From the NCBI GenBank assembly GCA_000091205.1, contig AP006500.2: a stretch of DNA of 64,000 bases. One strand, 5' to 3'. The stretch is from Cyanidioschyzon merolae. Taxonomy: Eukaryota. How positions within the stretch are numbered: position 1 is the stretch's first letter; every line of letters starts with the position of its first letter. A program made the position numbers and the translations under genes. The notes under the pieces were generated by a model, which saw only the letters and a program-made list of their open reading frames with translations, did no database searches and had not been told where the DNA came from. Of the stretch, positions 7,345 through 62,643 are shown in pieces.

Positions 7345-10300
7345 CCACAGATGCTCAAAGAAACGGTATCAGAAAACCCACTGGATGCGAATTTTCCATA
7401 CCCTTGATATGAGCCGTGGTGAAGCGACATGGATGGGCAAAGAGAAAAAAAGGTGCCTCCCCAGGAGACCGTCACGAGCTGGACATTTTCGATTCCGCAT
7501 TGATAGGCGAACGCTTATGACAGGAGCGACCGGTACTCGCCTCTCTCGGCAACAGCTCTTTCGTGAAAAACGGAGGATCTAACCGTAGATACGCAAAGCG
7601 GTGCGAAATGCCTCTCGTAAAGCCTCGACCGGTGAGCGTAGCGACGACAACATCAGCCCCAGCGGCGATTCAAGCATGTAGTCGCCTGAGTATCGGCAAA
7701 CAGGCAGACTCAAGCAACACGTCTGCCTCCCTTCTTCGAAGCACTCTGTGGCCTCTGCTTCTCGCGTTATTCTGTCCTGCGGGTAGGCCACGTTGCTTGC
7801 TGTGACGCAAAGGCGCTCCACGAGTGCGCAGCTGAGACGAGCGTTGAGCTGGTGTTCGCTTCAGCCTGGAAGTGCACGCTCAGTCCAGTTGGAAGCGTCT
7901 TCTCTGTCCTCCGTCGCCATGCTTTCCCTCAGGATGCGTTCCATAAAAACGCTCGGATGCGTGACGCTGTCCTTGGACAAGTCGTTTTCAGTCTTCGTCA
8001 GCGTTGAACGACTCTGGTGCTGAGCGGGTCGCCTGCGGGGAGGGATCGGTGAAGCGCGCCTCAGGCGTTTGGCACGCTCGCGGCTGAGAAGCTCGTGGAA
8101 AAGGCAGCTGCGGGATCGGAAACATATATACGCGGGGAGGCAAGTTGCTGGCTCGCCGTCCATCCACGGGGTCTGACTGCCGGTGTAAGAAAATGGAAGT
8201 GGAGTGCGACGTGCACATCCACGCTACCCGCCACGAAAGGAGAATGCGAAGCAACCACCTGACAGAAAAGAGAAGGATCCCAGCCGCAAAGAGGACGACG
8301 AGAGTCAGGAAGGAAACCCTGCGCACTGGAAAGGCCAGTCCGAAACCAGCGCCTACACGTCGGTGCCAGAACGCATCAACGGAAAAAATTCTCCGAGTAC
8401 GTGAGATGCCCAGGGCTATTAGGTATTGCGTAGAATGTGGTTGTCGGAAGGCTCGCCTAGCTCTCCCCGAATGGATGCCCCTCGTGCAGCAACTGGCGGC
8501 AAGGGTTTCGGAGGCAGCGCTGCCAGCAGTTCGCATTCGTAGGGAGTTTTTGGTCAAACCCTCGAGCGACAGCACTAGGAATGCTCCGCTCCGAGCATGC
8601 CAGCGGGCCTGTTCGTGGTGTCATTGACCAATACACACGCTGGCCGGCATCCGTTTCTGCGCTGCACTACATGGTTGCTCGGCCCATGGACAGCGTAGGT
8701 GCCAGGAAAAGTTTCGCCCAAACCTCAGAACCCATAGCCAAGAGCGGGTCCGTGGCGACTACCCTACGAGGCGCACCCCAGAGGCGTTGTACTCGTTGCG
8801 TCCACAGCGTTGTGGTCGACGAAATGTTGGCGACTGACGCAAGCGGCTCTTGGGATGTCCGTGGAGGCACGTGACGAGCTGGCTCCGGACGAGAAGGTGC
8901 TGGAAGCGAGCTCGGAGATGTCGCATCGAGAACGAGCGACGCTCCAGATCGTCCGAGCTCATGGAGTAGGTTTCTGTTCCGGAGCTGGGCACGTCGTCTC
9001 GGAAGGATTACGCGGGCGTTGACCTGGCCTAACTTGCATCCTGCGCTGCTAGGTTTTCGCGAACGCGGCGCTCCACCGCAAGGCAGACCCTCTGGTCGTA
9101 TGTGAGCGCCTTTGCATCCTCAAACCCCTGGTCGATACGGTCCCCGCATTTCGGGGCAAAGCCCATGATACCACCGTGCATATTTGTGTGGTGTACGACG
9201 TCCTCAGTGGTCTACGATGTGTGCGCACGAGCAGCTAGGGGGCACTCTACCTATTTCGGGCAGAGCGTTGGCGGGGCTCGTTCATCGCCACTCGTTGGCT
9301 GGGAAAACACGGAAAGCGATGTACAGGGGCCTTGGAGACGCGCACGGCACATCAAACAGCATGCACTTTGCGAAACCCCGGCCCGCTCGGAGCAACGAGA
9401 CTCATATTCAACCGCTTACGGAAAACGAACGTGAAGGCTTCGTGGTGCGCGTGGATGCCGTTTCTGAGGGCGCCGTGGCCGTCACCGTGCCCGTTCGTCA
9501 CGGGGCAGCGCCAGAGACCTGAACGGAAAGCAAATGAGTCTGCTCCACGCCTCCAGGGCCCGGTATCATCCGGAGTTGGACGTGAACGACGCCAGCAGGC
9601 GTACCAACTCGTGGAATGACGACGTAAAGACCTGTCGTGACGCGCTGAGTACGGTATCGGGCAAAAGGAGATGCACTGCGCACCTCATTCATAACGGGTA
9701 TGAGCGACTAGATCGCTCATGCGGACGAGCCATGGCAGAGGAACGCGGGACCGAGCTCGAGTCTCCAACAGTCGCAACCGCTCGCGGGCACGAGGCGGGT
9801 ATTCGCAAGCTTCCTCAAAGCACTGGAAACGGAACTGGCCGATCGGTTGCATCTTATAAAGATAGTGCATGGCGGTGGACGCGCTCTAGTTGCAGAACTG
9901 GACTGTCGTCGATAACGCACAAGGGATCCGCGAACCGGCACTGAAGTGCTCTCGGTGATGAGCTCTGGACGAGATTCTCACATCGCGAGCACAGAGACAC
10001 GCTGAAACTGCCGGTGAAGACGATTTGGAAACGGAGCCAGACGTATGAGATGACGTACGCTGAGTTCATTGAGCTCCAGGTGGCAATGCACTCACAGTTG
10101 AGACGCTTGCTGTGGAGTGTCTCCATCACGAACGGGAAACGCGTCCAGTTTCTGAACCGAGATTTGAGCGCCCATATCAGCATCTGGAACTGCATCGTTC
10201 TTCAGGAGCGTCCATCGGCTTTACTTCAGGCGAGGCTTCGATTCGATTGTCTAGTATGCAGTGTGGGTATTGTGCTGGAATGCTGCGGACTCTCGATGAA

Positions 10301-10432
10301 AAACATCATGTATCATCAGAGCGGCGATTAAGTCCCCGCTTGGAGCAAGCCACTTGTATGGTACGGTCTGCACTGTATCAAGGCCGGACTGCCATATACC
10401 TTCGCCACGAACAATGTTCGTGGGTAATTGTG
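7345..10432. repeat. Copy 1 of a 3.09 kb near-identical direct repeat; copy 2 is at 31227-34313
   Basis: The same ORF translations appear at 7385-10474 and 31226-34323. Similarity starts at CAGATGCTCAAAGAAACGG and stops after CGTGGGTAATTGT in both copies. Only a few SNPs or indels differ, for example near 9470 versus 33353. No recognisable coding content. Confidence 0.85.
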
Positions 10433-10775
10433 GAACACTCATCGTATTCCTTACTTGGGTATTACGGAGTATAGCGCTGTAGCAAACGAGGCTGGCGCTG
10501 CAGTGCGTGGCATTCAAACATGACTCTGCGCTGGCCTTGAATTTCGTCCGGGCGGCATTCCGGTACAGTCTCGAAAACTTTCTCTGTGCAGCAGCGTGCA
10601 GCTGTCTGCAACTTTAGTTTGAGTTACCGCGCTATTACGTTCATATTCTGTACAGCACTCTTTTGCAGCGGTAGAGCTAGTTCTCTGTACAGCTGCGTAC
10701 TTTTATATATATATGAATACGCTCTGCGGGGCGAAAATGTTTCGCGAACATGAGGTAAACTCATGTCCAGTCACC

Positions 10776-11310
10776 GACGCCTTCCGGCCTTTATTGGCCG
10801 GCCCCGTGCCATCGGTGTCAGCTTCTCGTTGTTAACTTCAAGTACAAGAGGCTGCCCCAAAAAGCTCGCCCGCGTTAGCTCCTCGGGTGTTGTCTTCAGC
10901 GCCGCATATCCTTTAATATTGATGGCGGCGTTAAAGTGACTTTTCAATTACTCCCTGCGTCTAATGCCTCTGGTGGAACTCACCAATGCAGGGATTCCTC
11001 AAAATTCGTGCCCTCTGCGCTGGTACGGTATCATCATCATCCCGTCCGTTAAACACCGTTTCTCGCATACCTACCGTGTTCTTTTCCGCCCCACGGTCTG
11101 CAAGGCGAGGTCTCCTTTCGATTTTTTCCGCCAGACAGCTATGACTCGCCTCCAGGATCCCTGACAGCCGTATCAATGACGCTCCCTTCGATTTTGTATT
11201 TTTGAAAATGAACGCATTTCATATGCATCTGTGCTATATATCGTGGTAAAGGATTTGATAACATTGAACTGAGTGCGGAACGCAATTTAAGTGAGAACTA
11301 TGAACTTATG
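10776..11310 (-). mobile_element. Fanzor/TnpB-remnant MITE-like element, copy D (non-autonomous, decayed)
   Basis: The minus strand encodes ...HFNAAINIKGYAALKTTPEELTRASFLGQPL followed by the conserved 3' block ...CCGATGGCACGGGGCCGGCC...GGCGTCGGTGACTGG. About 0.5 kb is homologous to copies C and E. The inner (5') boundary is approximate. Confidence 0.6.
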
Positions 11311-12527
11311 TAGCGTTAAATGTTACACAGGCACATGCTTGATGCAAAATTCGGGAGCGGCGCCCAATGATGTTTCTTGTACAGTTGCAGAAAGATTTAT
11401 TCAACTTTGTTTAGCTTAAGCTTTTCCCGAGATGTGAGCATCGCGCGTCTCCTGCACGGGGACCCTGAAGCGCTGCCTTGCACGTCTTCCGGCATAGAAT
11501 ACTTTCAGTGTTTGCTTGGCAGTCAGTTCTGAAACGGGGAGAGAGGCATCGCGACGAAGACGCCGCAGTGTAAGCTGCGAAGAACACTGACAAGTTTATG
11601 GTGCACGCTGTAGCACCAGCGCTTCGAGTTGTGCGCTTTTTGGAGAAGTCGTGCTACGGTCTCTTTCAGGCTCCTTGTTCCCGGGGTTGCAGCACGTTAC
11701 GACCACCTGGTGCTGGACGGGCTAGTAACGTGAGAGCACCTCGCGAGCTGCCGTTTGAGAAAGAAGAGCACGCAGTGGGTTTACCGCGCCTCGCTTCTCT
11801 GGGCACCGCAGCCGTTGTGGGTCCAGCGGCAGCTTTTGTCTCCGCTATGGTGATATCGTATGCCCTGACTTTTTGGCAACACTCCACTAACCTAAACAAG
11901 TCCAAATCAAGAGGCTAAGGACGCTCAGACAGGAGCATTCTGTGCACTTGGACTCTTCGGGACTCCCGGCAAGCCGCGGGTGACGAGCGCGCCCCGGCTA
12001 CAACGCAGCAACCGAAGTGGAACAGATGAAAGGCGTTTCTTGGAAAAAATTTCTGGCAAAGAACTCAAATTTTCGATACGCATAATCTCCCCGATGTTTC
12101 GGACTTAGGTACAGGGCTGGTCGTGAAGCACAGAGGTTTTGTCTTTCTATCGAACTTCGAAAAGTTGCTTATCCGGCGCGAAATCCGCATGCAATGCCTT
12201 CCGGGCCATTCTATCCAGCAGATAAGCGTCATAGAGGCGTTTCACGACGCTTTCGCTACTCTTACCTCATTTCAGAGCTTATCAACCTGAACGATTCCAT
12301 TTCAGAATGGAAATCAAGACCTTTCGTAGCCGATACCATCGAGCTGCGCAGAAAAGCGGTATATGTTGCGTGGTTCCCAACTGCGTATCCCTTTCAACTA
12401 AGTTTAATTTCACCTCCGCTACCGCGCTTACCACGAGATCAAAACCACTAGGCACAGTACCGTACAAATCGTAGACGAATTGCCTGTAGAATATATTTTT
12501 ACTGAACAGTGCAAGGAGAACTGCAAT

Positions 12528-13757
12528 TACCCTGCAGGTCAGTCACACCATATTACTCGCGTGGTGGTAGAGCACTTTAAGAAAGAGTTACATGCGCTCC
12601 GCATCAAAACCCGATATTCTCAAAGAGCACTTGCGTTTAATGGTAGAGAATGACCTGTTAATCACCTGACTGAAAGCAAAAGCGAGGATCGTGGTCGCCA
12701 CCTGCTTCTCTGTTTCTCAACCGGTAGTTCATGTAATGCTGAAAAACTGGCAAACAGTCGCAAAAAATCCCTGTTCACTCAAGGCCATCTTTTTACCGAC
12801 ATCGCAGTTAAAACAAAGTTCCTGGAACGTCATTATCGGCATGAAACAGAGGGGCGTCGGTTTGTTGTTTCAGTCGATGAGACTCCCTTCGGACAAGACG
12901 GTCGGGTCGTTGATGAGTATTCGAGGTGAAGGGAGCCCATTGTCTGTGCGATCGGACTCAAAGAGAACGACGATATTATCTGTTCTAGCTGTAGTGGATT
13001 CAAGTGGCGGCCTGGGTTTTGCTGGAACAGAAGGCCCTCACAACAGCACCAACAACTTTGTCGAATCATTGAAGACTTTTCCCAGACGTCCGGCGACTTC
13101 GTTCTGTTGGACAACGTGGTACTTCGCCATTCCCGTTGCGTTCGGGCTTTTGCCGAGGCTATCGGAGTAGAGATGCTTTTCATTCCTTCGTACGCTCCGC
13201 GGTTCAACCGCATCGAAGGAGAGTTTTCTATCAAAAAAAGCAATGCACGCACCACTATTCGAATCGATGATGCGTTCAGCACACGGTGACACGCCGGAGC
13301 CAATTTTATTTTGCTTGCGCAAATACTGCTCTTTTGGGGAAGGTCCCCACCTGAAGACATAACGAAGTGCGTTCATTTGAAGAAATAAAAAATCTTAGGA
13401 ATGAGCTGGGGTGTACACTTGAGAAGTTCGAGATAAAGAAACGCCAGCGGGCGCTTCGGCGAAAGAAAAATACGGAGAGCTTACAGAGCAGCATATGGCA
13501 CGAAAGGCGCAAGTTCGAATACTACTTGTACTCGGAACACGAGCGGCGGCAAGAAACGCATGGAGCTCGTGATCCGAGGCTTGAACGCTGCTATCAATAT
13601 CAGGAGATATTCTGTGTTGAAAACAAGGCCCGCAGGGATAACGCGTGCCAATTTTGTGGGATTGCCTCTCAGAGTCAAAATGCTCAAGGACGAGCTGATA
13701 CCGATAGCAGGGGGCCGGCGAAAAAGATATCGGAAGGTGTCACAACGTCGCTGGAAA
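12528..13757 (+). mobile_element. Tc1/mariner-like element with DDE_3 transposase remnant plus Fanzor/TnpB-like C-terminal remnant, copy A (decayed)
   Basis: The 5' end (12528-12700) is homologous to the reverse complement of 56235-56090 in copy B. It contains the DDE_3 signature VLLDNVVLRHS...FIPSYAPRFNRIEGEF and then the RuvC-III-like SGGKKRMELVIRGLNAAINIRRYSVLKTRPAGITRANFVGLPLRVKML. The 3' block CCGATAGCAGGGGGCCGGCGAAAAAGATATCGGAAGG is conserved. The 3' boundary is uncertain. Confidence 0.6.
12691..13289 (+). pseudogene. Tc1/IS630-family (DDE_3) transposase pseudogene, frameshifted
   Basis: ORFs 12691-13170 and 13107-13289 lie in different frames. The motifs DN..H and P.YAPRFNRIEGEF match the Tc1/IS630 DDE_3 C-terminus (D...P.YSPDLNPIE). 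Confidence 0.65.
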
Positions 13758-13835
13758 GACATACATTCTATGCCAGGAAAGTATTTTCGTGGCGCCGACA
13801 TGAGCGCCGCCTGCACCTGCAATCCTACCCGCTGA
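13480..13835 (+). pseudogene. TnpB/Fanzor-like RuvC-III C-terminal remnant (catalytic D replaced by G: RGLNAAINI)
   Basis: The frame of 13560-13835 stays open upstream to about 13480: ...TCTRNTSGGKKRMELVIRGLNAAINIRRYSVLK.... The xxNAAINI motif with an upstream C..EF half zinc finger is diagnostic of the TnpB/Fanzor RuvC-III region. No N-terminal domains are present. Confidence 0.6.
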
Positions 13836-16333: not shown

Positions 16334-17746
16334 GTGCCAAGGTTAAAAAGGAACACTGACCTTATCGGACTGCTGCTACCTATCGATTCCTTAACCTACC
16401 TTGAATGGATGCTTGGCCTCGAAAGTCGAATTGCAGTAATACGGGCATACAGATTCATATACAGTTCTGAGAAGTTCGGTGGTCTGTTCGACTTGACTCC
16501 TTCGACGCTTTGCCGCTAGAATGCGTTACGGATCCGAAATAAAGATGGTACGCGACGCCCTCGAACAGGGTTCGTTATTCGACCTGCATCGTTGTCCAAT
16601 TCACATGTTCAACCTCAACTGTGCTGCTTTCCTTATACGCAGCAGGCTGAAAGCACGCATCCTTCAAGTTTCCGATCATTCTATTTCAAGGCGACTCGAG
16701 GGCGCAGCAGTTCGCGCCGCTGGACTGGCGAAGAATGCTGCTTGACGTCGCCCCTGAGGAAATGCTCAGAAGCTCATAGCGAAAAGTCACTGAAATTCTC
16801 ACGATAAATAATCGATTGCGTTCGAGAGTCGAATCCTCCCCTCTTTGTGGTCATCGACGAAGCAGCATTCGACGGCAGCGCAATAGATCTCACGGGAGAT
16901 GCTTTCATATGTCACCGTCTCTTCTGTTTGCATGGAAAGGGTCTTGGACTTTGAGTTGAGGCATCGCAGCGATTGCTTCCAGTAGAGCCTGCGTCACCGC
17001 TTTGCGGTAAGGGACCGTAAAAGGATCGAAATTTCTCGACTTTTACCCTAGCGAGGTGTCTCCTCCCCGCACTAGTGCCGTCGTGGGCAGCATCGCGCGA
17101 CGCAAACCCTCCGTCCAATGAACAGCGAGCGCTGGTGTTTGCATCGGGCAGAGTACTCGCGGACATGGTCGCCCAGAAGAACCCCGTGATTTAAGGGTAC
17201 AGCACCGGGCGCGGAAACCGCGGAGCGCATCCTGGGGCGCCTTCTGTACCCTTCAAGCGCATGAACCGAGCGCATGAACCGAGCGCATGAACCGAGCGCA
17301 TGAACCGAGCGCATGAACCGAGCGCATGAACCGAGCGCTGAAGCGAGCCCTCACGCGCTGCAGGGTGAGCCTCGTTGGCGAAGGAGGCGTACTCCTTATA
17401 TGCGACCATCTAAGCGCATCCATGCGTCACGCCTGTGCAGAGGGCAGCGAGACTGTGTCCAAAGAAGATGACAAGAGCAATTGAAACGCAGATCGCAACC
17501 TCAGCCTGTGCATGAAATGCGTCTAAACAGGCCGCAAGTAACGTGGCTCGGACTGTACTGCTGCCAGCAATACTCCCCCATTGGTGACAATAGAACTTCA
17601 GGGATAGGTGAGACCAGCGTATTCAAAGGCGAGCTTGAGAGCAACGAAAGAGAAGCAGTCGCTGAACGGTCAGTGAAAAGCTGGTTTTCATGGCAATTAC
17701 GAGGGACTCAAACTCTAGGGTGTGCTTGTGAGTTCCCTGAGTGCAT
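16334..17746. repeat. Left arm of inverted repeat IR1 (about 1.41 kb); right arm 19344-20761
   Basis: Mirrored ORFs: 16521-16745(+) equals 20346-20570(-), 16912-17166(-) equals 19925-20179(+), and 17481-17849(+) matches 19143-19610(-) up to ...EFPECI. Boundaries were read directly: CCAAGGTTAAAAAGG at the outer edge and GAGTGCATC at the inner edge. Confidence 0.85.
17262..17339. repeat. 13-bp tandem repeat (GCGCATGAACCGA x6) inside the IR1 arm; mirrored at 19747-19824
   Basis: Direct reading: cgcatgaaccgagcg repeated six times. The inverted copy ctcggttcatgcg also occurs six times. Confidence 0.9.
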
Positions 17747-17989
17747 CAGTCTTATTTTTATGTGGCACATGTACAAGGCACGCTTCGTCGGAGCAGGCAA
17801 TGGAAGCTCGCCTCACGACCGACGGTGGATTCTGCAACGAGCTGCATAACGCGCTGCGGTCTGTTCGTAGCAGCATTTATGTTGCTAGTGGTGCTTTCTC
17901 GAGCTGAGGACGAAAGCTGCTTCCTTAGAAGGACACGGGGTGGCGATCGAAGTCCACGCTGAAGTCAGCGACTTCCTTCTGGCATTTCT

Positions 17990-18670
17990 ATGCGAAGAAA
18001 CACGCTGAGTGGCTTTCTCCCTCTGCTTAGGGTAAGGGCACGAAAAGCGACTGTTTCGCAACAACCCTCCTCGATGAGCGTTTTCGCACAGTACTCGTCT
18101 CAGCAGCACCAGCAGTGCTCCTCTATAGAGCGGGTGAGTTGTCGCCGTTTCCGCTTAGAGTCTCCACCTGATACTTGGAGGCTAGGCGCTGCGCTGGCTC
18201 GCCTTGCACGGCCTGGCGATGTGTTTCTGCTTCAGGGCAGCCTCGGAGCCGGAAAGACGACATTGGCTCGGGGCTTTATTCAAGAGTTTCTGAACGATCC
18301 CGAACTTGAAGTTGTCTCACCTACGTATCTTCTGGACGTGACCTATCCGGACTACGAGAACAAGGCCAAAGTTCCTGGTGTAGTTCTTCATCATCTGGAC
18401 TTGTATAGGCTGGAGAACGCTGACGATCGCCCAATTGCGGACTTTGCCGATATATTCACCCATCAAATATGCTTGGTCGAATGGCCAGAGCGCCTGGGAA
18501 AGTATTCAACACCAGAAGAATTCTTGCAGATCCGCTTCTCCTTCGTAGCGGGCGCGGATGGGCCTCGCGTTATTGAATCATCTGGTTTTGCGAGTCACAA
18601 GCACCTGGAGAATCCACGCTGGTCACAGGCACGCATCGATCAAATACAATGGCAATGTTCAGCAGCTTAG
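17990..18670 (+). CDS. tsaE: tRNA threonylcarbamoyladenosine (t6A) biosynthesis protein TsaE/YjeE-like P-loop ATPase with an N-terminal organellar presequence
   Basis: GDVFLLQGSLGAGKTTLARGFIQ (P-loop), SPTYLLDVTY and HHLDLYRLEN match bacterial TsaE family motifs. The first roughly 60 aa are S/R-rich. The gene lies in the spacer between the IR1 arms. Confidence 0.7.
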   Translation: MRRNTLSGFLPLLRVRARKATVSQQPSSMSVFAQYSSQQHQQCSSIERVSCRRFRLESPPDTWRLGAALARLARPGDVFLLQGSLGAGKTTLARGFIQEFLNDPELEVVSPTYLLDVTYPDYENKAKVPGVVLHHLDLYRLENADDRPIADFADIFTHQICLVEWPERLGKYSTPEEFLQIRFSFVAGADGPRVIESSGFASHKHLENPRWSQARIDQIQWQCSAA

Positions 18671-19343
18671 ATATGCCGAGAGCCTCCGAAGCTTTCGAGG
18701 AGACCACCATTGCGTAGACCCTGACGCACACCTCGGGTGTGATTGGACCGGCTCTCTGTGCGTCTTCAACGCTTTTCTCGTTGCCGCAGAGACGAGCACA
18801 TATGTGGCATGGCTGTTTCATGCTGCCTCGATCTCTTATATACTGGAGTGCGAGCAGGCCCTATCATCAAGTCGACACCGTGTGCGTCGTTCTAGCGCTG
18901 CCGCTTGATGGAGTTCTCCGTAGAAAGCAGCCATGTGAACTTTCGTGGCAATGCACATATCCGTTCCGCAAGCGTGCTACTTGTTCAAACTGCTACATAT
19001 GGGAATTTTCAGTCTTTGCCGACGCATAAATCTTCGAAAGATGGACGCACATGTTAAGGAGAACGAAAGATCTTTCAAGATCCACGAAACCGCGAAATAT
19101 GAACGCGGCATTAGCAGCGTCGGAAGCAGTCTAGCCCAACGACTACCCAACGACTCTTCTGTGGTATATCTTCGAATGACTTCTGTCCATTGTCGCGTGA
19201 TAAGAGTTGATGGTATGGCAGTATCCGTAGATAATAATCACAGCGCAATGTCGTGTGTTCGACATGAGTTGCGGAGGCACCCCGCAACGTTTGTTCGTTG
19301 TCTTCGTCTCATGCTTACTCTCGTGAGAGAATAAAGTAAAGCA

Positions 19344-20761
19344 GATGCACTCAGGGAACTCACAAGCACACCCTAGAGTTTGAGTCCCTCGTAATTGCCA
19401 TGAAAACCAGCTTTTCACTGACCGTTCAGCGACTGCTTCTCTTTCGTTGCTCTCAAGCTCGCCTTTGAATACGCTGGTCTCACCTATCCCTGAAGTTCTA
19501 TTGTCACCAATGGGGGAGTATTGCTGGCAGCAGTACAGTCCGAGCCACGTTACTTGCGGCCTGTTTAGACGCATTTCATGCACAGGCTGAGGTTGCGATC
19601 TGCGTTTCAATTGCTCTTGTCATCTTCTTTGGACACAGTCTCGCTGCCCTCTGCACAGGCGTGACGCATGGATGCGCTTAGATGGTCGCATATAAGGAGT
19701 ACGCCTCCTTCGCCAACGAGGCTCACCCTGCAGCGCGTGAGGGCTCGCTTCAGCGCTCGGTTCATGCGCTCGGTTCATGCGCTCGGTTCATGCGCTCGGT
19801 TCATGCGCTCGGTTCATGCGCTCGGTTCATGCGCTTGAAGGGTACAGAAGGCGCCCCAGGATGCGCTCCGCGGTTTCCGCGCCCGGTGCTGTACCCTTAA
19901 ATCACGGGGTTCTTCTGGGCGACCATGTCCGCGAGTACTCTGCCCGATGCAAACACCAGCGCTCGCTGTTCATTGGACGGAGGGTTTGCGTCGCGCGATG
20001 CTGCCCACGACGGCACTAGTGCGGGGAGGAGACACCTCGCTAGGGTAAAAGTCGAGAAATTTCGATCCTTTTACGGTCCCTTACCGCAAAGCGGTGACGC
20101 AGGCTCTACTGGAAGCAATCGCTGCGATGCCTCAACTCAAAGTCCAAGACCCTTTCCATGCAAACAGAAGAGACGGTGACATATGAAAGCATCTCCCGTG
20201 AGATCTATTGCGCTGCCGTCGAATGCTGCTTCGTCGATGACCACAAAGAGGGGAGGATTCGACTCTCGAACGCAATCGATTATTTATCGTGAGAATTTCA
20301 GTGACTTTTCGCTATGAGCTTCTGAGCATTTCCTCAGGGGCGACGTCAAGCAGCATTCTTCGCCAGTCCAGCGGCGCGAACTGCTGCGCCCTCGAGTCGC
20401 CTTGAAATAGAATGATCGGAAACTTGAAGGATGCGTGCTTTCAGCCTGCTGCGTATAAGGAAAGCAGCACAGTTGAGGTTGAACATGTGAATTGGACAAC
20501 GATGCAGGTCGAATAACGAACCCTGTTCGAGGGCGTCGCGTACCATCTTTATTTCGGATCCGTAACGCATTCTAGCGGCAAAGCGTCGAAGGAGTCAAGT
20601 CGAACAGACCACCGAACTTCTCAGAACTGTATATGAATCTGTATGCCCGTATTACTGCAATTCGACTTTCGAGGCCAAGCATCCATTCAAGGTAGGTTAA
20701 GGAATCGATAGGTAGCAGCAGTCCGATAAGGTCAGTGTTCCTTTTTAACCTTGGCGACAAA
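19344..20761. repeat. Right arm of inverted repeat IR1
   Basis: See the left-arm entry. The arms are near-identical, including the same six-unit tandem-repeat count. Confidence 0.85.
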
Positions 20762-25800: not shown

Positions 25801-26547
25801 TGCAAAGCGGAGACGTAGAATTCCATGGAAATGATTGCAGCAGTGATTGGAGTTCGAACCCAGCATCCGTTTCCATGCAAGCAGAACAGACGGGATCCTG
25901 TAACTGCACATCTCGTAAGAGTAACTGGGCCACATTTGAATGGCGTTTCACTGATGGTAATGAAGAGAGGTGGATTCGACGTGCAAAATGAATCAATCAT
26001 GTGAAGAGGTAATTTGATTGAATTTTCTGCATGAGCTTGTGAGCAAAACGTGAATGAACGACATCGAGTTTTTTACTCGTCTATCCATCAGAGCGAATCT
26101 TGTGCCCACGTGTAGCCCAGAAACAGAACTTTCGAGTTCTTGAACACTCCGGAATTCGAGCATCCTGGTCATAAGGGAAATAGAAGAGTGAAGGGATGCA
26201 CGTATGAACTGTTTCATGATTTCGTATATTTTACAGACCCTTGTTTTACGACATCGCGGTTCTGCTTAATTTCGGTCATTCAACGAATTGCACCGGTAAA
26301 AAGTGGAAGGAACCACTCCGGAAAGAAAATCGAGAACTCTTAAACTACGTATGAATCCGTAAAATTTTAGTCATGATATTCGAATGTCGACAATGTTCAC
26401 CTGAAACATTTTCGGAGAAAAACAAAAGGTATGAGCAGACCGAGCTGTTCAGTGTTCTGTTCTAACCTGACACTGGTGTATATGTATGTTCAGTAAAACA
26501 ATAAACTTTCAAGGACCCTAGAGTGTCTATACACACCCAATCACATA

Positions 26548-27095
26548 CGCCTCCCAGCATGTTTTGGCCGGTCTCCTGCTATCGGCCTCAGTTTCTCTTT
26601 TTACACGTCGACCCTGAGAGGCTGTCCCACAAAGTTTGCCTGCGTCAGCTCTTCGCGTCTCGTCTTCAGCGCCACACATCGTCTGACATTGACGGCGGCG
26701 TCTTATTCTCGGCTTAGAAAATCCTTGGGTTTATGGCGATTGGTTGAGGTCACTACTGCAAGGAATCGCAGAACAAGCGCCCTCTGTGCCACTGTACTCT
26801 CGTTATCGTCTCTTCGGGCGAAAAACTTTTCTCGCCTGCCTCCTCTTTTCCTCATCCTCTTCGTCACTTGCTCGTCTTCACTCGATGGTCAGGGACGGGA
26901 GGATCTTGAAGCTTCTCCGACATCAGGCAATGACGGCCCTGCAAAATCCCTGACTTCCATATCCATACCTCTAACTTGGATTTTGTACTTTTTAAAAATG
27001 ACGTACTTCGAGCTCATTTGCTATAAACCGCGAAAAGGCATTTAATTACACGCACATGAGGTCGATCACACTTGAGGTGAAAGAATATTCGGACC
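26548..27095 (-). mobile_element. Fanzor/TnpB-remnant MITE-like element, copy E (non-autonomous, decayed)
   Basis: The minus strand encodes ...*DAAVNVRRCVALKTRREELTQANFVGQPLRVDV*. The 3' block is ...CCGATAGCAGGAGACCGGCCAAAACATGCTGGGAGGCGTATGTGATTGG. The region 26920-27080 is homologous to 59995-60170 and to 11130-11300. Confidence 0.6.
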
Positions 27096-31226: not shown

Positions 31227-34200
31227 TGCACAGATGCTCAAAGAAACGGTATCAGAAAACCCACTGGATGCGAATTTTCCATACCCTTGATATGAGCCGT
31301 GGTGAAGCGACATGGATGGGCAAAGAGAAAAAAAGGTGCCTCCCCAGGAGACCGTCACGAGCTGGACATTTTCGATTCCGCATTGATAGGCGAACGCTTA
31401 TGACAGGAGCGACCGGTACTCGCCTCTCTCGGTAACAGCTCTTTCGTGAAAAACGGAGGATCTAACCGTGGATACGCAAAGCGGTGCGAAACGCCTCTCG
31501 TAAAGCCTCGACCGGTGAGCGTAGCGACGACAACATCAGCCCCAGCGGCGATTCAAGCATGTAGTCGCCTGAGTATCGGCAAACAGGCAGACTCAAGCAA
31601 CACGTCTGCCTCCCTTCTTCGAAGCACTCTGTGGCCTCTGCTTCTCGCGTTATTCTGTCCTGCGGGTAGGCCACGTTGCTTGCTGTGACGCAAAGGCGCT
31701 CCACGAGTGCGCAGCTGAGACGAGCGTTGAGCTGGTGTTCGCTTCAGCCTGGAAGTGCACGCTCAGTCCAGTTGGAAGCGTCTTCTCTGTCCTCCGTCGC
31801 CATGCTTTCCCTCAGGATGCGTTCCATAAAAACGTTCGGATGCGTGACGCTGTCCTTGGACAAGTCGTTTTCAGTCTTCGTCAGCGTTGAACGACTCTGG
31901 TGCTGAGCGGGTCGCCTGCGGGGAGGGATCGGTAAAGCGCGCCTCAGGCGTTTGGCACGCTCGCGGCTGAGAAGCTCGTGGAAAAGGCAGCTGCGGGATC
32001 GGAAACATATATACGCGGGGAGGCAAGTTTCTGGCTCGCCGTCCATCCACGGGGTCTGACTGCCGGTGTAAGAAAATGGAAGTGGAGTGCGACGTGCACA
32101 TCCACGCTACCCGCCACGAAAGGAGAATGCGAAGCAACCACCTGACAGAAAAGAGAAGGATCCCAGCCGCAAAGAGGACGACGAGAGTCAGGAAGGAAAC
32201 CCTGCGCACTGGAAAGGCCAGTCCGAAACCAGCGCCTACACGTCGGTGCCAGAACGCATCAACGGAAAAAATTCTCCGAGTACGTGAGATGCCCAGGGCT
32301 ATTAGGTATTGCGTAGAATGTGGTTGTCGGAAGGCTCGCCTAGCTCTCCCCGAATGGATGCCCCTCGTGCAGCAACTGGCGGCAAGGGTTTCGGAGGCAG
32401 CGCTGCCAGCAGTTCGCATTCGTAGGGAGTTTTTGGTCAAACCCTCGAGCGACAGCACTAGGAATGCTCCGCTCCGAGCATGCCAGCGGGCCTGTTCGTG
32501 GTGTCATTGACCAATACACACGCTGGCCGGCATCCGTTTCTGCGCTGCACTACATGGTTGCTCGGCCCATGGACAGCGTAGGTGCCAGGAAAAGTTTCGC
32601 CCAAACCTCAGAACCCATAGCCAAGAGCGGGTCCGTGGCGACTACCCTACGAGGCGCACCCCAGAGGCGTTGTACTCGTTGCGTCCACAGCGTTGTGGTC
32701 GACGAAATGTTGGCGACTGGCGCAAGCGGCTCTTGGGATGTCCGTGGAGGCACGTGACGAGCTGGCTCCGGACGAGAAGGTGCTGGAAGCGAGCTCGGAG
32801 ATGTCGCATCGAGAACGAGCGACGCTCCAGATCGTCCGAGCTCATGGAGTAGGTTTCTGTTCCGGAGCTGGGCACGTCGTCTCGGAAGGATTACGCGGGC
32901 GTTGACCTGGCCTAACTTGCATCCTGCGCTGCTAGGTTTTCGCGAACGCGGCGCTCCACCGCAAGGCAGACCCTCTGGTCGTATGTGAGCGCCTTTGCAT
33001 CCTCAAACCCCTGGTCGATACGGTCCCCGCATTTCGGGGCAAAGCCCATGATACCACCGTGCATATTTGTGTGGTGTACGACGTCCTCAGTGGTCTACGA
33101 TGTGTGCGCACGAGCAGCTAGGGGGCACTCTACCTATTTCGGGCAGAGCGTTGGCGGGGCTCGTTCATCGCCACTCGTTGGCTGGGAAAACACGGAAAGC
33201 GATGTACAGGGGCCTTGGAGACGCGCACGGCACATCAAACAGCATGCACTTTGCGAAACCCCGGCCCGCTCGGAGCAACGAGACTCATATTCAACCGCTT
33301 ACGGAAAACGAACGTGAAGGCTTCGTGGTGCGCGTGGATGCCGTTTCTGAGGGCCCGTGGCCGTCACCGTGCCCGTTCGTCAAGGGGCAGCGCCAGAGAC
33401 CTGAACGGAAAGCAAATGAGTCTGCTCCACGCCTCCAGGGCTCGGTATCATCCGGAGTTGGACGTGAACGACGCCAGCAGGCGTACCAACTCGTGGAATG
33501 ACGACGTAAAGACCTGTCGTGACGCGCTGAGTACGGTATCGGGCAAAAGGAGATGCACTGCGCACCTCATTCATAACGGGTATGAGCGACTAGATCGCTC
33601 ATGCGGACGAGCCATGGCAGAGGAACGCGGGACCGAGCTCGAGTCTCCAACAGTCGCAACCGCTCGCGGGCACGAGGCGGGTATTCGCAAGCTTCCTCAA
33701 AGCACTGGAAACGGAACTGGCCGATCGGTTGCATCTTATAAAGATAGTGCATGGCGGTGGACGCGCTCTAGTTGCAGAACTGGACTGTCGTCGATAACGC
33801 ACAAGGGATCCGCGAACCGGCACTGAAGTGCTCTCAGTGATGAGCTCTGGACGAGATTCTCACATCGCGAGCACAGAGACACGCTGAAACTGCCGGTGAA
33901 GACGATTTGGAAACGGAGCCGGACGTATGAGATGACGTACGCTGAGTTCATTGAGCTCCAGGTGGCAATGCAGTCACAGTTGAGACGCTTGCTGTGGAGT
34001 GTCTCCATCACGAACGGGAAACGCGTCCAGTTTCTGAACCGAGATTTGAGCGCCCATATCAGCATCTGGAACTGCATCGTTCTTCAGGAGCGTCCATCGG
34101 CTTTACTTCAGGCGAGGCTTCGATTCGATTGTCTAGTATGCAGTGTGGGTATTGTGCTGGAATGCTGCGGACTCTCGATGAAAAACATCATGTATCATCA

Positions 34201-34313
34201 GAGCGGCGATTAAGTCCCCGCTTGGAGCAAGCCACTTGTATGGTACGGTCTGCACTGTATCAAGGCTGGACTGCCATATACCTTCGCCACGAACAATGTT
34301 CGTGGGTAATTGT
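31227..34313. repeat. Copy 2 of the 3.09 kb near-identical direct repeat
   Basis: See copy 1. It starts about 300 bp upstream of the RRM gene start and ends about 290 bp before the DUF1517 gene. Confidence 0.85.
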
Positions 34314-52264: not shown

Positions 52265-55034
52265 GCAGTTGCATACAAAGCGGGACGGTTAGCGCTCTGC
52301 TGAGTAACGATAGGCAATAACTTTGTATCGAAAACAGCAAACTCGCTTGTAGTGCGATCGAGATGCTATATAAAAATGGATCTTTTTGGACATCAAATCC
52401 GAGTCGCCCACACAAACGGCGTGGGGGAAAACCCTCGTTGCCTGCTATGGCATATGCACGTCGACTTATGTCGGAATGAAATGGAAAAGTCCAGCCAACT
52501 CGGGGTTAAACTTTCAGACTTTGATCACTTGGGACTGTAATCAACACCAGCTTGTACGAAATTTCTCTTCGACTACCTTCGTGTCTTTCTCTCGAATCGC
52601 TGACTTTTAATACGTCGGTATCTCCGTGCTCTCAAGGCCCATATTTTGCTGTCCAAAGACGTTGATGGCAGCCTTGAAGTCCCCATTTAGCAGCGCCCAG
52701 CTATTGACGACGCATTTTATGCTTAGGAGGACGTCGCGATTCACGAATCGCTTCCCATTTTCATCTACTTTGTATTCAGCCCAGGTCTGCTCTTCGTAGG
52801 GGTGAAACTTGACCGCGATCACGTGTTCCATTGTGTCCGCTAAAATTACTCCTCCTGCGGATGCCACGCTGTGGTTCACGAAAGCTTGGTTCATAGCGCA
52901 TTATATGCCTTTGATGAGCATAGATGGCTCCGTTCGCCATTTTGATCAGCTTCTGGACCCGGTGCCACACCTTACGATAACAGGCTTTCTCTGGGCGATC
53001 CCCTCGGGGAGTATTCTTTCCACTGTACACGCAAGAGCTCCAAGCTCCATTCCATAGCTTCCTATCTGGCTCCTTGCGCGCTCTTCGTTTTCTGCCTACT
53101 CTTCCCATAAATCCTGCCGATGAGCTTGATGGGCATCAAGGTACCTGAACCGATCAAGAGCAACGTGTCCGCACTTTCCATGCGCTTTCGACAAGGCAGT
53201 AACGGCCTATGAAATTCGTTCCTGTTTCGCTCCCTTGAAGTAACATTCTCTCATTCCGTTCCTTCTCCTAAAAAAGAACATGAAAGGTGTGTGAGTAGAA
53301 CACAAGAATGTAGGTAAAATTCGGAGCGTTGGAGACATCCGGCTCTCGAGCGTGGCCGTTGACGACAGGGGTCGGTGTCCTCTTCGGGTGTCATGGAATC
53401 GCAGTTGCAAAGGCTTATCCTCCATGGATACATGCCGGTGCAGTTCGCATTGAGGACAAAGTTCGCAGGACTATGCATCCGCATTGCTCGGCGCTGCTCG
53501 GCGTAGCTCCCTTTCTGGGCATGGGTACATGTGCGCACTGTCGGTCATGAAGCGTGCAGGACGTTCGTGGATGGTGTTGAATGTTGCCTCGCCAGCGGTC
53601 TCGATGGAGGGCAACTGTTGCCCTATGTATAGTGCAAACCGCCTGTACCTCCCTTTTTCTTCCCATTCGCATCTCTCTTTGCTTTCAGTCGATTTTTGTT
53701 CATCCAACAGTTTACAAGTTCCTTCTAAGCTTCGAGTGAAAATTGCAGTGTTCCCTTCATCATGTCTTCGCCCGCAAACATCTACTCTTCGTTTTCAACG
53801 CTGTCGTTTTCCACCGGACGCATCTACGCCTAGTTTGCGAGGATGCCCCCTCTACAATGAAGCGAAAAGCGCGCGAATCAAGACGCTGGTATAAAAGACC
53901 GAGAGATTCATTCGAATTAGGCAAGATTATTTCCGTTAGGGGCGCTGGAACAGCACGCCACATGCAGAAGCACCATCGCTTTCGTGTGCGGGTTACTCAC
54001 AGGTGGTGGATCCACCTTATTCTCGGCGTCGTCGCGCTTGAAGGATCTTCTATGGAGGTGCTTCATGGACTAGGTATTCTGCGAGCCTATTAAGCCTCGC
54101 CGAAGAGCCACTTGTGAAGAGCTATCTCATGCTGCTGACTGAGTTGCCGACCTCTGACTATGCTGCATCGAATCCCCCATGTTGGGAAGGAGACTGACAG
54201 CTGATTGGCAATTCGAAGTGAATAAGAACAGAAACCAGCACCCAGCGAGAAATTGGATGTGCGTTCCTCTCTTCCTCCTGCATAAGATATTGAGGAAGAA
54301 CACTTTACGTGTATTTGGAAGTTTATCTTATACGCGAGAGGTCCGTCGAGACGAAGCACTCTACCGGACGAGTCCTTCGCGCGCTCCCCGGGTTGGCTGC
54401 TTTCGCGAAACCTGAACATATCGTCTGGAACGCAGTTTTCTTTCTGGCTACGAGTTGGCGGACTGTTTCTGAACTTCGCCACGGTCGCTGTAATCTCCCA
54501 GCTTGTCGTTTCGCGCCGCCTGCAGCCTGTTTGAGCGACCTTCTGAATCCCAGAATGAGGATGAGTTTCGACCCTGCGTCGGGTAAAGCAATTTGGTGCC
54601 GACGCCCCCATGGTATGGCAAAGCCCTTCTGTCCCCGTGCTGCATCCTCACCGGCGCTGTGGGCCTCATTGTGAACGCTCACAGCTGGCTCGACGCACGA
54701 TGGAGCGATTGGAAAGACAGTTATCTTAGAGAAGAATGATATGTACAACCTGGTGGAAATTTCAGGCTGGGCGATATGATGGACGGTTTCTCGGATGCCG
54801 TGATCAGTCGCGCAGTTAAACCCCTCTGTCAGTGTAAATATTTTGTCGTTTAAAAAATTAGAAAAAAATCACATTCGACGCGCCGCTGTTCGAAGTGATC
54901 AGATAATGAATGCTGTAGCAAAAAGATGGACAGAGTCTGTGCTGTCCTATTTATACAAATCGTCCGTGGAACAAACAATGTTTTACGAGCATGTGGAATA
55001 AATTAGTATCCACTCACAGATGCCTTCCATCCTT

Positions 55035-56235
55035 TTTAAGCGTCCGACTGCTATCGGCTTCAGCTTCTCCAAGCGCATTTCGACTCTGAGAGGTTGCCCC
55101 AAAAATTTGCTCGTGTCAGCCCCTCGGGTACCGTCTTCAGCACCGTACATCTCCTGACATTTATGACAGCGTTCCAGTCTCGATTCACGAACTCCATGCA
55201 TTTCTTGCCGCTGTTTGAACTCACCAGTGCAAGGAGAACTCGCGCGCCTGCCTTTTGTACCATTTGCTGCTTCGTCAGCTCTGGGTGCCTATCTACCACC
55301 GAAGCGCTCCGCTGCCTTTCCGCCATCTCTACCCTCTGGAGTGTACATCAAAGCTCATCCCTTAGAGTTTTTATTTTTTCTAACTGAATGCACTTCTTTA
55401 TGCCACCAGGAGAGGATCTTTTCCGAAAGAGAAGCATTTGCGGAAGACAGATGAAATGTGCCAGGATATGTCACTGTGTGCTGAAAGGTTCAGCGAATCG
55501 CATATTGGAGCGATCATTACCTGTCACAATAGGGAACATTCCTTCGATGGGGTTGAACCAAGGATTATACGGAGGACTGAAAAGCAGTTTTGCCTGGATA
55601 GAATCTGCAAAATCTCGAACACTAGCGGAATGATGAAATATTACGTTGTCCAAAAGAAGATCGTCGCCAGCCTTCATGGAAACGTCTTCAATGATGCGGC
55701 AAAGTGGGTGCTGTTGAATCAGCCTTCTCTACGAGCGAAACTGAGGCCGACAATAGTATCCACTACATCTAGAACAAATGATGATATTCTCGTTCCCTTC
55801 GAGTTCGATCATACGAACAATGGGCACCCTGCTCAGCGAATACCCATACACTTTCCGATCGTTCCGTGAGAAGAAATCTCACAGACTGAAACACATCTAG
55901 GTTCCACTGCTTCATACCGATCGCGACGTTCATGGAACTCTGTAGATGCATTTTCGGTGGAATATGGCCTTGCGTGAACAAGGACTTTCTTGCGACTGTA
56001 TCCCAGTGTTTTCAGTACCACACGAACAAGCTGTTGAGAAAGAGAGACTCCCGTGGTGACTGTGATCGACGCTTTTGCATTCCGCAAAAGGTGATCAACG
56101 GGTCGTTTTCTACCACTGACCGCAGGTTCTCTTTTAGAGTATCGGGTTTTGGCGCGGAACGCGTATTATTGTTTCATTCAGAGTTCCTCCACCACCCGAG
56201 TACTGTGGTATGACTAACCTAACGGTGGAATTTGG
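55035..56235 (-). mobile_element. Tc1/mariner-like element with DDE_3 transposase remnant plus Fanzor/TnpB-like C-terminal remnant, copy B (decayed)
   Basis: Minus-strand order: HTH-like fragment (ORF 55833-56087), DDE_3 LLLDNVIFHHS...FSPPYNPWFNPIEGMF (55677-55471), then RuvC-III-like SNSGKKCMEFVNRDWNAVINVRRCTVLKTVPEGLTRANFWGN...QPLRVEMRLEKLKPIAVGRLKRM (55326-54983). The 3' block ends ...GGATGGAAGGCATCTGTGAGTGG. The 5' end is homologous to 12528-12700. Confidence 0.65.
55438..56087 (-). pseudogene. Tc1/IS630-family (DDE_3) transposase pseudogene, frameshifted (part of element B)
   Basis: ORFs 55833-56087, 55769-55981 and 55471-55677 on the minus strand lie in shifted frames. DN..H and P.YNPWFNPIEG match the DDE_3 C-terminus. 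Confidence 0.65.
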
Positions 56236-57289
56236 TCCTGCTACCACTGCCCAGTAAAGAATATGTATCCTACATGCAATCCGTCAAAGATCTATACAGT
56301 ACATCACGTGGTGATGTCGATCTCCTGCAATAGACTGTGACATAGCATTCGATCACACTCAGCGGGGGCCGAACGAAACTGAGTTGAAAGACCATAATGG
56401 GCATCAAAGTCTGCTTAGGTGGAACAAAAACCTTTACGATTTCGTTCAGGAAAACGCAAACGTATTTATAAGGAATCGGTCACCTTGCCCCTCGCGAAGA
56501 CGCACAGAGGGATTGCAGACACAAATCAACGCATTTCTAGGCATAGTGTCTCCGCAGAGCATAGACGCTTCTCGAGGTCAGCTGCGGCACAGCAGCAGCC
56601 GCGCACCCGTGAGCGGAGTCTTCAGGAGCGGGACTAGACAGCGAACCGCACGGCGGAACAGGAAGCAGATTCGTATGCTCAGTTAGTGCCTGCGAGGCAC
56701 AACTGCGTTCGTTTCCAGCTTCGGTCGCCCTCGCAACTCTTTATCTCTGAAACAATCTGTATGTCTCGATATATGCACACCAATGTGTTCGTTTTAATTC
56801 GCCTTTCGATGCTCCTGGCCTTGCGCTCTCGGTTGTACGCTGGCGGCGCGTAAAGCTTCGCATATGTTGCGTATAGATGCCACTGCCGCAGCTCAGGAGC
56901 GGTGCTTGTCGCCCCGGTGCTGATGCAAGAAAACTATCTTCCGTTCCATCTCGACGAGTGGCAACCAAGTTTTCCAGACATTCCCAGTTCTTGGCTGCTT
57001 GGTTCGGATACGTTTTTGGGGATAACTCACACATGTTCTTGTACGTGCCGGCGGTGCCTCTGCGCTCAGAATGGTGGATATTCACCGCCTCCATCTCCTA
57101 CAGGCTTGGATTTCTGTGGGATCTACTTTAACCGCAAGTTTGAGCGCTAGCTCGTCTCGCTGCGAGCCCGCCGCAATCTCATCAGTTCGCGTAGATTCGC
57201 TGTCGCAGCGAGACGTTTATCCGGTTTCGCTTGCAACGGGCTTGCAGTGGTCCCGAAGAGAAGGGTCTTTGCGTTTGCGGTAAGATCGC

Positions 57290-57673: not shown

Positions 57674-57756
57674 CTCAGACCGCTGGGAGTCTGCATACTG
57701 CTTGACCCGCAGACCGGTGCCGTCGACAAGCGTTCAAGTTTTCTTAGGGTACCTCT

Positions 57757-59147: not shown

Positions 59148-59648
59148 AGCCGGTGAATGATCGCAGGCGATGCACGAAGCACGCGGCGGTAGCGGTAGGA
59201 GTTCTGTGCTGTTCCATATATACGGCGTTGTCATACGTTTGCAGTCCGTTTGTTACGCGGCAAAGAAGGATTAATATTCAACTCAGAGCAGGTCATGGAA
59301 GTCGATTCAATTTTGCCATTCAATGTCAAATTTTGTCATTCATGGACGCTTGCCTCATGTTCTTGGGTGGCTCGACTCGCACTCTCGTCGCTAACGCATC
59401 GGTACGGAGCAGTTCTGAGCTCATCGCGGCACAGCGTTCCGTCGATTTCAGGTAAAGCGCAACTGGGCATACGCTGCAAGTTGAATAGGATATTGGTTTA
59501 CTTGGACCAAATGAAGGGGTCGTTGAGCCCAATAAGTTTATCCAGATGCCCTTCCACATAAAGGAATCGATAAACTTCGGAACTGTGTTTCAGTTATCAG
59601 AAGGACCAAAAAGCGTTCTACAACCATGCAGTCCAAATACCCGCTTAC

Positions 59649-60185
59649 TCACAGACGCCTCCCAGCTTTCTTTTGGCAGGCAACCGAAATTGGAATCCGT
59701 TTTTATCCCAGCGAACTTCGATACCGAGAGACCGCCCCACAAAGTTGGCTCGTGCCGGCTCCTCGAGTCAATTCGTCAAAACCACACATCTTCTGATATT
59801 GATGGCGGCTTTGCAATCTTGGCTCACGAACTCCTTGCATATATTGCCTCTGGTTGAACGCAACTTTGCATGTTTCCCTCGAACTTGCACCCTCCGCGCC
59901 ATTACAATCTCGTCATCGTTCCGTCGGGCAAACTCCTCGGCCCGCCTACATCCTTGTTCTTCTTCAATTGCTCTTCTTCGCTCGTTCGGTAGCTGGCGAT
60001 GATGGCCCTCCAGCATCCCCGACTTCCATATCCATATCTCTCACTAAGACCTTTTTAAAATAAACACACTTCGAACGTATATGCTATAAACCACAAAAGA
60101 TAAGCATTTGATTCCACTCATCTGGGCGTGGAACACAATTGAAGAAAAAGACTACAAGATACAGGCAGCCGTTGCTTTCAGGAAT
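59649..60185 (-). mobile_element. Fanzor/TnpB-remnant MITE-like element, copy C, lying in the IR2 spacer
   Basis: Minus ORF 59768-60016 reads ...RGNICKEFVSQDCKAAINIRRCVVLTN, then ...ARANFVGRSLGIEVR. The 3' block is ...GGTTGCCTGCCAAAAGAAAGCTGGGAGGCGTCTGTGAGTAAG. The upstream roughly 300 bp is homologous to copies D and E. Confidence 0.6.
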
Positions 60186-62403: not shown

Positions 62404-62643
62404 AGTTTACAGCATGGAAAAACTTCGCTGTGCGTGGGTATGTGTGTGCATATTTACGTTCATAGATGCATGCGCCCCGCGAAGAGCCCTGTCCTTTACT
62501 CGAGTAATACAATCCATCGGCCTGCGAATCAGACAGTTTTCACGAATCTTGCATCCAGGGATGTGTTTTCTGAGGGACTCATTGAGCAATCTTTCGCAGG
62601 TGCAGCAGTGCGGATGGCTATACGAGCGCACGCATCTACGGTT

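Follow-up and report, generated by a model that had tools for sequence, protein, structure and literature searches.

Fanzor1 transposons have been known from the red alga Cyanidioschyzon merolae since 2013, when the family CMe-1, with its element CMe-1A, was described (Bao & Jurka, Mob DNA 4:12, PMC3627910). As given in that paper and its supplement, the CMe-1A consensus measures 3169 nt and holds a single-exon ORF (906–3110) for a protein of 734 aa; about 150 copies, some 80% identical to the consensus, were reported, with ORFs intact in a few of them, no terminal inverted repeats (TIRs) and a classification given as unknown. The same source describes PUl-1 of Pythium ultimum, a Mariner–Fanzor1 composite whose Fanzor1 is complete and which has TIRs of 24 bp and TA duplications. 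A further case is Spizellomyces punctatus, where 134 ORF-less ‘ghost’ Spu-1 elements were counted against 19 full-length Fanzor copies (Saito et al. 2023, PMC10432273). The analysis presented here concerns relics of such elements in one stretch of DNA of 64,000 nucleotides (hereafter the window). Five of the relics are ordinary members of the set of about 150 decayed CMe-1A copies reported in C. merolae in 2013; how they are built, and what their damaged catalytic residues do and do not say about their history, is discussed below.

The window encodes, among others, eIF2B-epsilon, an ABC1 kinase and DUF1350 and DUF1517 proteins, and these genes recur on hot-spring metagenome contigs. Three of its proteins match C. 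merolae 10D entries without a difference (BAM82586, BAM82583 and BAM82582, on a 1.25-Mb contig), and the window is accordingly assigned to this strain. The window holds no long operons of the prokaryotic style, and the count of Rfam matches and tRNAs in it is zero.

The + strand at positions 13560–13620 reads MELVIRGLNAAINI and belongs to the first relic, copy A. Four more copies, all on the – strand, were located beside it by a six-frame motif scan, with the equivalents of NAAINI starting at 55173 (copy B), 59812 (copy C), 10932 (copy D) and 26702 (copy E). The consensus of the Fanzor/TnpB RuvC-III tail in these copies is NRDFNAAINI. All five are homologous at the DNA level, with blastn E-values of 1e-10 to 1e-23 among themselves and of 1e-14 to 1e-47 against the published consensus. 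The CMe-1A consensus aligns to each of them, over the tails at nt 2737–3092 and, in the short elements called minis below, also at nt 787–969; the CMe-1 protein contains ...VDEFRTSYTHHELGC...GKKRMEFVNRDFNAAINIRRC... As judged from these alignments, the five copies are fragments from the 3′ terminus of CMe-1/CMe-1A, a Fanzor1 transposon family.

A wider sampling of the family was obtained with a profile of the five tails, which recovered 106 short ORFs from hot-spring metagenome contigs, some of them running upstream into ...VDEFRTSYTHHELGCTLQRVEMEKCQRS... Upstream on the ORF-bearing contigs lie GADPGNTN (RuvC-I), a long helical linker and VVAYGAGRW...VDEFRTS. With a reconstructed query, ORFs of up to 752 aa were found; the 752-aa ORF, from metagenome contigs, bears all three motifs and ends right after NFIG, about 40 residues before the consensus protein does. 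When 1.84 billion representatives were searched with HMMER, 1541 relatives came up (E ≤ 1e-3), many of them 600–750 aa long; one is a protein of Tetrabaena socialis, a green alga. From these, 52 diverse full-length members were combined into a profile, which matched the solved Fanzor1 proteins 9CF0 (Parasitella parasitica Fz1, 1.1e-19), 8GKH (SpuFz1 of Spizellomyces, 2.8e-12) and 9CER (Guillardia theta Fz1, 1.2e-4). The motifs GxDPG, DEFRTS and NRD (NRDxNAAxNI) align with the RuvC-I, -II and -III motifs of these solved proteins and fall on the catalytic D/E/D of SpuFz1, residues named in PMC10432273, and the Asp of NRDF is the counterpart of the Mg-coordinating RuvC-III Asp of that protein. 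The complete triad (the GxDPG Asp, the relocated Glu in DE[FY]xTS and the RDxNAAxNI Asp) is found in the CMe-1 consensus, and none of the 52 full-length relatives departs from this triad or from the NRDxNAAxNI core (D232, E404 and R472/D473/N475/A477/N479). Other searches returned less: neither phmmer with the full-length protein P0107 nor a shallow 26-sequence profile gave a Fanzor match among PDB sequences, no Pfam match was obtained for the full-length proteins P0107, P0108 and P0113, the surroundings of copies A and B, scanned against Pfam in six frames, yielded DDE_3 only and no TnpB/Fanzor domain, and the Pfam entry Cas12f1-like_TNB gave a sub-threshold match in one of 10. An AlphaFold2 model of P0107 (pLDDT 32.6, pTM 0.19) was unusable for fold comparison. 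The assignment of the CMe-1 family to Fanzor1 rests on sequence profiles together with the literature.

The initial annotation of this locus had stated that the catalytic RuvC-III Asp is substituted or lost in most copies, and a codon-by-codon reading in register bears this out: the residue is gone in three of the five copies (A, D and E) and kept in B and C. Copy A (13575–13601, +) reads R-G-L-NAAINI, encoded by CGA GGC TTG, where the Asp codon at 13578–13580 has changed from GAC to GGC (Gly). Copy B reads R-D-W-NAVINV (CGA GAC TGG, – strand, Asp codon 55177–55179) and copy C reads Q-D-C-KAAINI (CAA GAT TGC, – strand, Asp codon 59816–59818), the Asp being kept in both. The ‘D to F’ assigned to copy D came from a register error of one residue. 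The motif of copy D is S-H-F-NAAINI (AGT CAC TTT, – strand, Asp codon 10936–10938), so that Asp has become His, and the Phe is the ancestral residue following the Asp (consensus NRDFN); a stop lies two codons further upstream. Copy E reads R-E-*-DAAVNV on the – strand (CGA GAA TAA). Its stop just before DAAVNV (TAA, 26703–26705) had been noticed and is real, but the Asp codon itself (GAA, 26706–26708) is also altered and specifies Glu. The stop is polymorphic, some related strains having TTA in place of TAA. All three hits are single-base changes, from GAC to GGC, CAC and GAA in A, D and E, respectively.

None of the five copies contains RuvC-I or RuvC-II, the 3′ part of the ORF being present only from consensus nt 2737 or 2831 onward, and compared with the solved Fanzor1 proteins the copies hold the RuvC-III segment only. 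By alignment, they are fragments of family members and not functional members. Introns, hinted at by GTGAGT-like strings, were considered as the reason for the missing upstream motifs and rejected: the ORF was published as a single exon, and full-length copies run collinear with the consensus.

Copies A and B are chimeras. Copy A, of about 1.4 kb (12388..13802, +), consists of a left end (12388–12421 by nhmmer), a relic of a DDE_3 transposase, a CMe-1 tail starting at nt 2737 (residue 612) and a right end defined by multi-copy alignment; consensus 2737–3020 corresponds to 13401–13679. The transposase relic (12867..13271, +) is frameshifted and matches Pfam PF13358 with an E-value of 2.2e-09. 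Copy B (54960..56396, –) has the same DDE_3 component; its tail is frameshifted, and ‘DEL*C’ contains a stop. Scores for PF13358 are 37.7 bits in A and 37.0 bits in B (E 3.8e-09), above the cut-off of 28.6, so that the upstream part of both copies carries a DDE_3-type domain of the IS630/Tc1/mariner kind; intact homologues of the relics, DDE_3/HTH_Tnp_Tc3 proteins of about 300 aa, exist elsewhere at 40–47% identity. The two copies are homologous over 1284 nt at 72% identity. In both, only consensus 2737–3020 is represented, preceded by about 1 kb with the DDE_3 relic, and what remains of Fanzor is the last ~120 codons. Because the junction lies 3′ of the RuvC-II Glu codon, 20 nt downstream of it, A and B are without RuvC-I and RuvC-II. 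This structure of about 1.35–1.4 kb is common to five distinct paralogs (A, B and three others) at about 70% identity. A fused transposase–Fanzor ORF in A and B was considered and rejected, a stop after ‘...AFSTR’ being conserved in A, in B and in the five-copy consensus. As in PUl-1, a DDE transposase gene of the IS630/Tc1/mariner type stands upstream of Fanzor1 sequence in one element; unlike in PUl-1, no TIRs could be detected in the chimeras of C. merolae, and their Fanzor1 is incomplete. They could have originated by deletion from a transposase-plus-Fanzor composite or by recombination. The accessible part of Bao & Jurka 2013 (PMC3627910) makes no mention of DDE_3-bearing chimeras.

Copies C, D and E are mini elements of another design, in which the left end, the 5′ leader and the first ~50 codons are followed, in the same reading frame, by the last ~90 codons and then the right end. 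In copy C (59594..60152, –), consensus ~791–954 is joined to ~2831–3′ end, with stops and frameshifts; in copy D (10720..11301, –), 787–967 is joined to 2848–3′ end; in copy E (26487..27088, –), 787–959 is joined to 2840–3083 and the right end. About 100 poorly aligned bases separate the left and right consensus blocks. Some 590 codons have been deleted, RuvC-I and RuvC-II among them. The two-block structure (~787–969 plus ~2840–3085) was found in nine distinct paralogs, namely C, D, E and six from metagenome contigs, and its recurrence in these six points to one deletion that was later amplified. The minis are not mentioned in the accessible part of the 2013 description, which covers the 3.2-kb form and TE-N2_CMe (PMC3627910). 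The ORF-less ghosts of S. punctatus are the closest described parallel to the CMe-1 derivatives, being likewise derivatives in which the transposon ends are kept. The likeness has its limits, since the Spu-1 ghosts are described as retaining nothing beyond the regions with homology to the inverted repeats, whereas the CMe-1 minis, which lack inverted repeats, retain ~50 N-terminal codons in frame with ~90 C-terminal ones.

Two more Fanzor relics lie in the window. Copy F (9504..10223, +) is a diverged Fanzor1-like relic with the motif NRDLSAHISI, the Asp codon GAT at 10161–10163 and a scrambled frame; at 28% identity to CMe-1 residues 449–692, it is older and more diverged. Copy G (33374..34105, +) is its 99.5% duplicate, contained in a 3086-nt duplication (31229–34313), and is also broken. 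The view that all copies are old pseudogenes therefore stands, as each of A–E lacks RuvC-I and RuvC-II and carries stops or frameshifts, and so does the argument against any current RNA-guided nuclease activity from this locus: A–E lack the nuclease core, F and G are broken, and an active nuclease can be encoded nowhere in the window. The verdict on the locus does not carry over to the genome as a whole: intact CMe-1 ORFs are reported in PMC3627910, and the 752-aa metagenome ORF has its three motifs.

A second line of reasoning in the initial annotation relied on the zinc finger upstream of RuvC-III. Its CxxC pair is indeed absent from all copies, no CxxC..CxxC..RD arrangement being found in three frames over 300 nt upstream; misassigned frames, which had been named as the way in which the reading could fail, are excluded, as no alternative-frame zinc finger occurs in any frame. 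The single Cys said to remain is not a remnant of the finger: in B and C it is a new substitution at a consensus Arg codon, CGY having become TGC (AAA CGY ATG to AAA TGC ATG). Nor does the missing finger reflect decay, for it is already lacking in the family consensus and in full-length relatives. In the consensus protein published for CMe-1, the segment from DEFRTS to NRD is free of CxxC pairs and reads TSYTHHELGC...EKCQRS...GKKRMEFVNRD. Of the 52 diverse full-length relatives, 50 have no CxxC in the stretch from the RuvC-II Glu to the RuvC-III Asp and none has two; the mean there is 1.3 Cys. Solved Fanzor1 proteins, in contrast, have a CCCC finger, with a CxxC right after DE[FY]xTS and a CxxxxC before NRD, and the C4 (CCCC) finger of SpuFz1 and of the Bao & Jurka motif is not found in the CMe-1 family. 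Because 50 of the 52 relatives are without CxxC while the triad is invariant, finger loss is, to go by these comparisons, an old trait of the clade, whose proteins look as if under selection, and not decay of individual copies. The accessible part of Bao & Jurka 2013 (PMC3627910) gives a family motif that includes the C4 finger and does not mention its absence from CMe-1, and no statement on zinc-finger absence in a Fanzor1 clade was found in a limited literature search.

With the finger set aside, the question is how the Asp losses came about. It had been proposed that they show a nuclease already inactive or dispensable when the copies were made. The Asp was kept in 13 of 19 distinct paralogous tails and, among 96 motif-bearing database ORFs, in 81, a frequency similar to that of neighbouring positions, and these counts imply that it was ancestral in every subfamily. 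Orthologous copies from hot-spring metagenomes carry the same substitutions as those in the window. The five tails retain 57–71% of subfamily-consensus residues (mean 63%), and at this mean retention the probability that a given residue is kept in at most two of five copies is 0.26; 19 of 79 tail positions are in fact kept in two or fewer. Loss in three of five thus fits what neutral decay predicts from these alignments and, the Asp being ancestral, is no sign of prior inactivity. Dispensability at the time of copying is partly upheld on other grounds: because breakpoints are common to many paralogs, truncation or replacement of the nuclease body preceded amplification, and the Asp substitutions contribute no evidence to that point.

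The best explanation, to which we give a probability of roughly 85%, is that derivative subfamilies of CMe-1 formed once, were amplified and then decayed almost neutrally. Two non-autonomous subfamilies, the minis and the chimeras, would each have arisen a single time and multiplied; after insertion, decay would have been near-neutral, the Asp being hit in three of five copies alongside stops and frameshifts. The reading implied in the initial annotation, with a full-length nuclease gene once present at every site and each truncated and mutated independently, is most improbable. All copies are clearly degenerate, as such a history would have it, but the deletion in C, D and E is common to six further distinct paralogs, and A and B share their junction at nt 2737 and the DDE_3 segment with three others. 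The dN/dS analysis proposed in the initial annotation gave pairwise values of 0.5–0.6 among derivative tails. Codon-position diversities are 0.29/0.32/0.35. The pairwise mean pN/pS is 0.67 for 16 derivative-type and full-length-B tails and 0.31 for full-length CMe-1A-type copies, while 200 simulated neutral decays with the same divergence and transition/transversion ratio gave 0.86 ± 0.06 (minimum 0.74). As 0.67 is below all 200 simulations, part of the divergence took place under protein-level constraint. Over the history of the family, constraint was strongly relaxed without vanishing completely, as is expected if part of the divergence arose in coding masters. The same figure can be turned into an argument that the minis encode, or encoded, a functional protein of ~140 aa made of an N-terminal basic region and the RuvC-III/C-terminal segment, with the tail under protein selection independent of nuclease activity; the in-frame deletion junction, ORFs of 120–143 aa spanning it in several database copies (P0013, P0003, P0023 and P0029) and a pN/pS of 0.70 among mini copies point the same way. 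We regard this as unlikely, since all three window minis and most others carry stops or frameshifts, the excess at third codon positions is slight, and the residual constraint would be left equally by divergence in coding masters or by exchange with full-length elements. Single origin, amplification and near-neutral decay remain the preferred account; stops or frameshifts are present in all five window copies.

Amplification of elements without a nuclease raises the matter of what was retained. The best non-self matches of an HMM built from the first 40 nt of the chimeras are consensus nt 787–817, the corresponding site of full-length copies and the 5′ termini of minis C and E. At the other side, all classes share the tail and ~85 nt past the stop, to a common right end (...TTGTTTCACTGAC). 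Both derivative subfamilies therefore keep a left end, the last ~250 nt of the ORF and ~85 nt of 3′ flank. These ends may be kept as cis-acting termini needed for mobilization in trans, and the enzyme responsible may be the DDE_3 transposase, as in Mariner–Fanzor1 composites such as PUl-1. That role is suggested because the DDE_3 gene sits between the same ends; it is weakened because TIRs and TA duplications are missing. A search for terminal inverted repeats linking the two ends was negative, with inverted local alignments giving trivial matches at best (score 12), and no TA target-site duplication was seen at the flanks, where a TTATAG-like motif stands 5′ of the left end instead.

By analogy with TnpB and Fanzor, the retained ends and tail may also hold a guide-RNA scaffold. 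The tails could then have been amplified for the right end and an omega-RNA/fRNA scaffold, and the minis would be satellites that encode no protein and supply only the guide, relying on intact CMe-1 Fanzor1 and a transposase acting in trans. Under this refinement of the best explanation, with which it is compatible, the coding state of the Asp would be irrelevant. It agrees with the fact that exactly the left end, the 3′ part of the ORF and the flank up to the common right end are kept in both subfamilies, with the origin of the TnpB/Fanzor guide RNA in the 3′ end region (PMC10432273, PMC10530073, PMC13565253) and with the S. punctatus ghosts, 134 ORF-less elements keeping only ends (PMC10432273). 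RNA folding lends it no support, as no conserved structure was detected: over 13 tails the RNAalifold consensus is weak (–11 kcal/mol, covariation term –0.79), and covariation is no better than in shuffled alignments, 48–115 of 500 of which reach the observed values, although 13 decayed tails give this comparison little power. We consider guide-only satellites possible, at clearly less than even odds. The broader combination of claims, that the CMe-1 clade is a zinc-finger-less and perhaps active lineage of RNA-guided nucleases, that the common ends name the DDE_3 transposase and that the tails are trans-mobilized, possibly guide-bearing satellites, is likewise put forward tentatively, at clearly less than even odds.

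For annotation, the case teaches that a mutated catalytic residue in a fragment missing two-thirds of its active site carries no functional information, that mapping onto the family consensus should come before the interpretation of single residues, and that the absence of the zinc finger is here a trait of the lineage and not decay. If experimentally confirmed, a zinc-finger-less Fanzor1 clade with an invariant triad could matter to the study and engineering of Fanzor. Likewise, ends common to Fanzor, mini and DDE_3 elements could, if confirmed, matter for studies of mobilization; if true, the shared ends would name the transposase of a family that was classed as ‘unknown’ in 2013.

Directly 5′ of the left end common to the full-length, mini and chimera forms, a TTATAG-like hexamer is found in most copies, in all three subfamilies, and the published CMe-1A consensus also carries one directly 5′ of its left end. 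The six bases concerned lie at ~12382-12387 and 56397-56402 in the chimeras A and B, and at 60153-60158, 11302-11307 and 27089-27094 in the mini elements C, D and E, respectively; homologous loci L007, L015, L021, L029 and L038 were included in the comparison. Farther 5′ of the hexamer, the sequences of the copies are unrelated. The hexamer may represent an AT-rich target or a TAM-like motif; alternatively, the element itself may begin with these six bases.

Copies D (− strand) and A (+ strand) are arranged head-to-head (10720-13802), with left ends ~1.1 kb apart, a layout kept in metagenome contigs of related strains (loci L025 and L026). Near copy B, a segment on the − strand (54319-54656) matches nt 191-539 of the CMe-1A consensus, the part equated with element TE-N2_CMe in the 2013 paper (PMC3627910). 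It lies ~300 nt 3′ of the right end of copy B, in the same orientation as B. Similar neighbourhoods, with a tail followed by a 5′ segment, occur at loci L006, L029 and L032; the piece next to the tail is inverted in L006 and L029, and in L006 a shorter piece in the same orientation lies beside the inverted one.

Copy C sits in the 1.9-kb spacer of a 1.39-kb inverted duplication (57755-59147 and 61014-62405; 99.9% identical); related repeats (~65% identical) are located at 5848-6409, 16643-17284, 19807-20448 and 46427-47032. Another inverted duplication, of 1.42 kb (16336-17758 and 19333-20755; 99.7% identical), encloses a TsaE/YjeE-like ORF (17990-18670), and its arms contain a short tandem repeat (~17070-17420) translated as SCARFMRSVHALG. 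A GC-rich (~59%) direct duplication of 3086 nt (7346-10431 and 31229-34313) is 99.5% identical, with 14 differences. Each duplicate holds a second Fanzor1-like relic (9504-10223 and 33374-34105), far more diverged and with a scrambled reading frame, whose motif NRDLSAHISI retains the Asp and has lost NAA.

Among full-length relatives (loci L004 and L005, proteins P0107 and P0114), acidic repeats of ~25 residues (KHEEKKEADPATQKVQDNDFVV) between the WED/REC region and RuvC-I vary in number from 2 to 6; in the published consensus there is one.

In copy E, the stop codon TAA (26703-26705) adjoins the mutated Asp codon. The Asp-to-Glu change is common to all orthologous copies compared, whereas three of the four orthologous metagenome copies (loci L008-L010, versus L012) have TTA (Leu) in place of TAA; the stop of copy E is therefore a polymorphism among strains.
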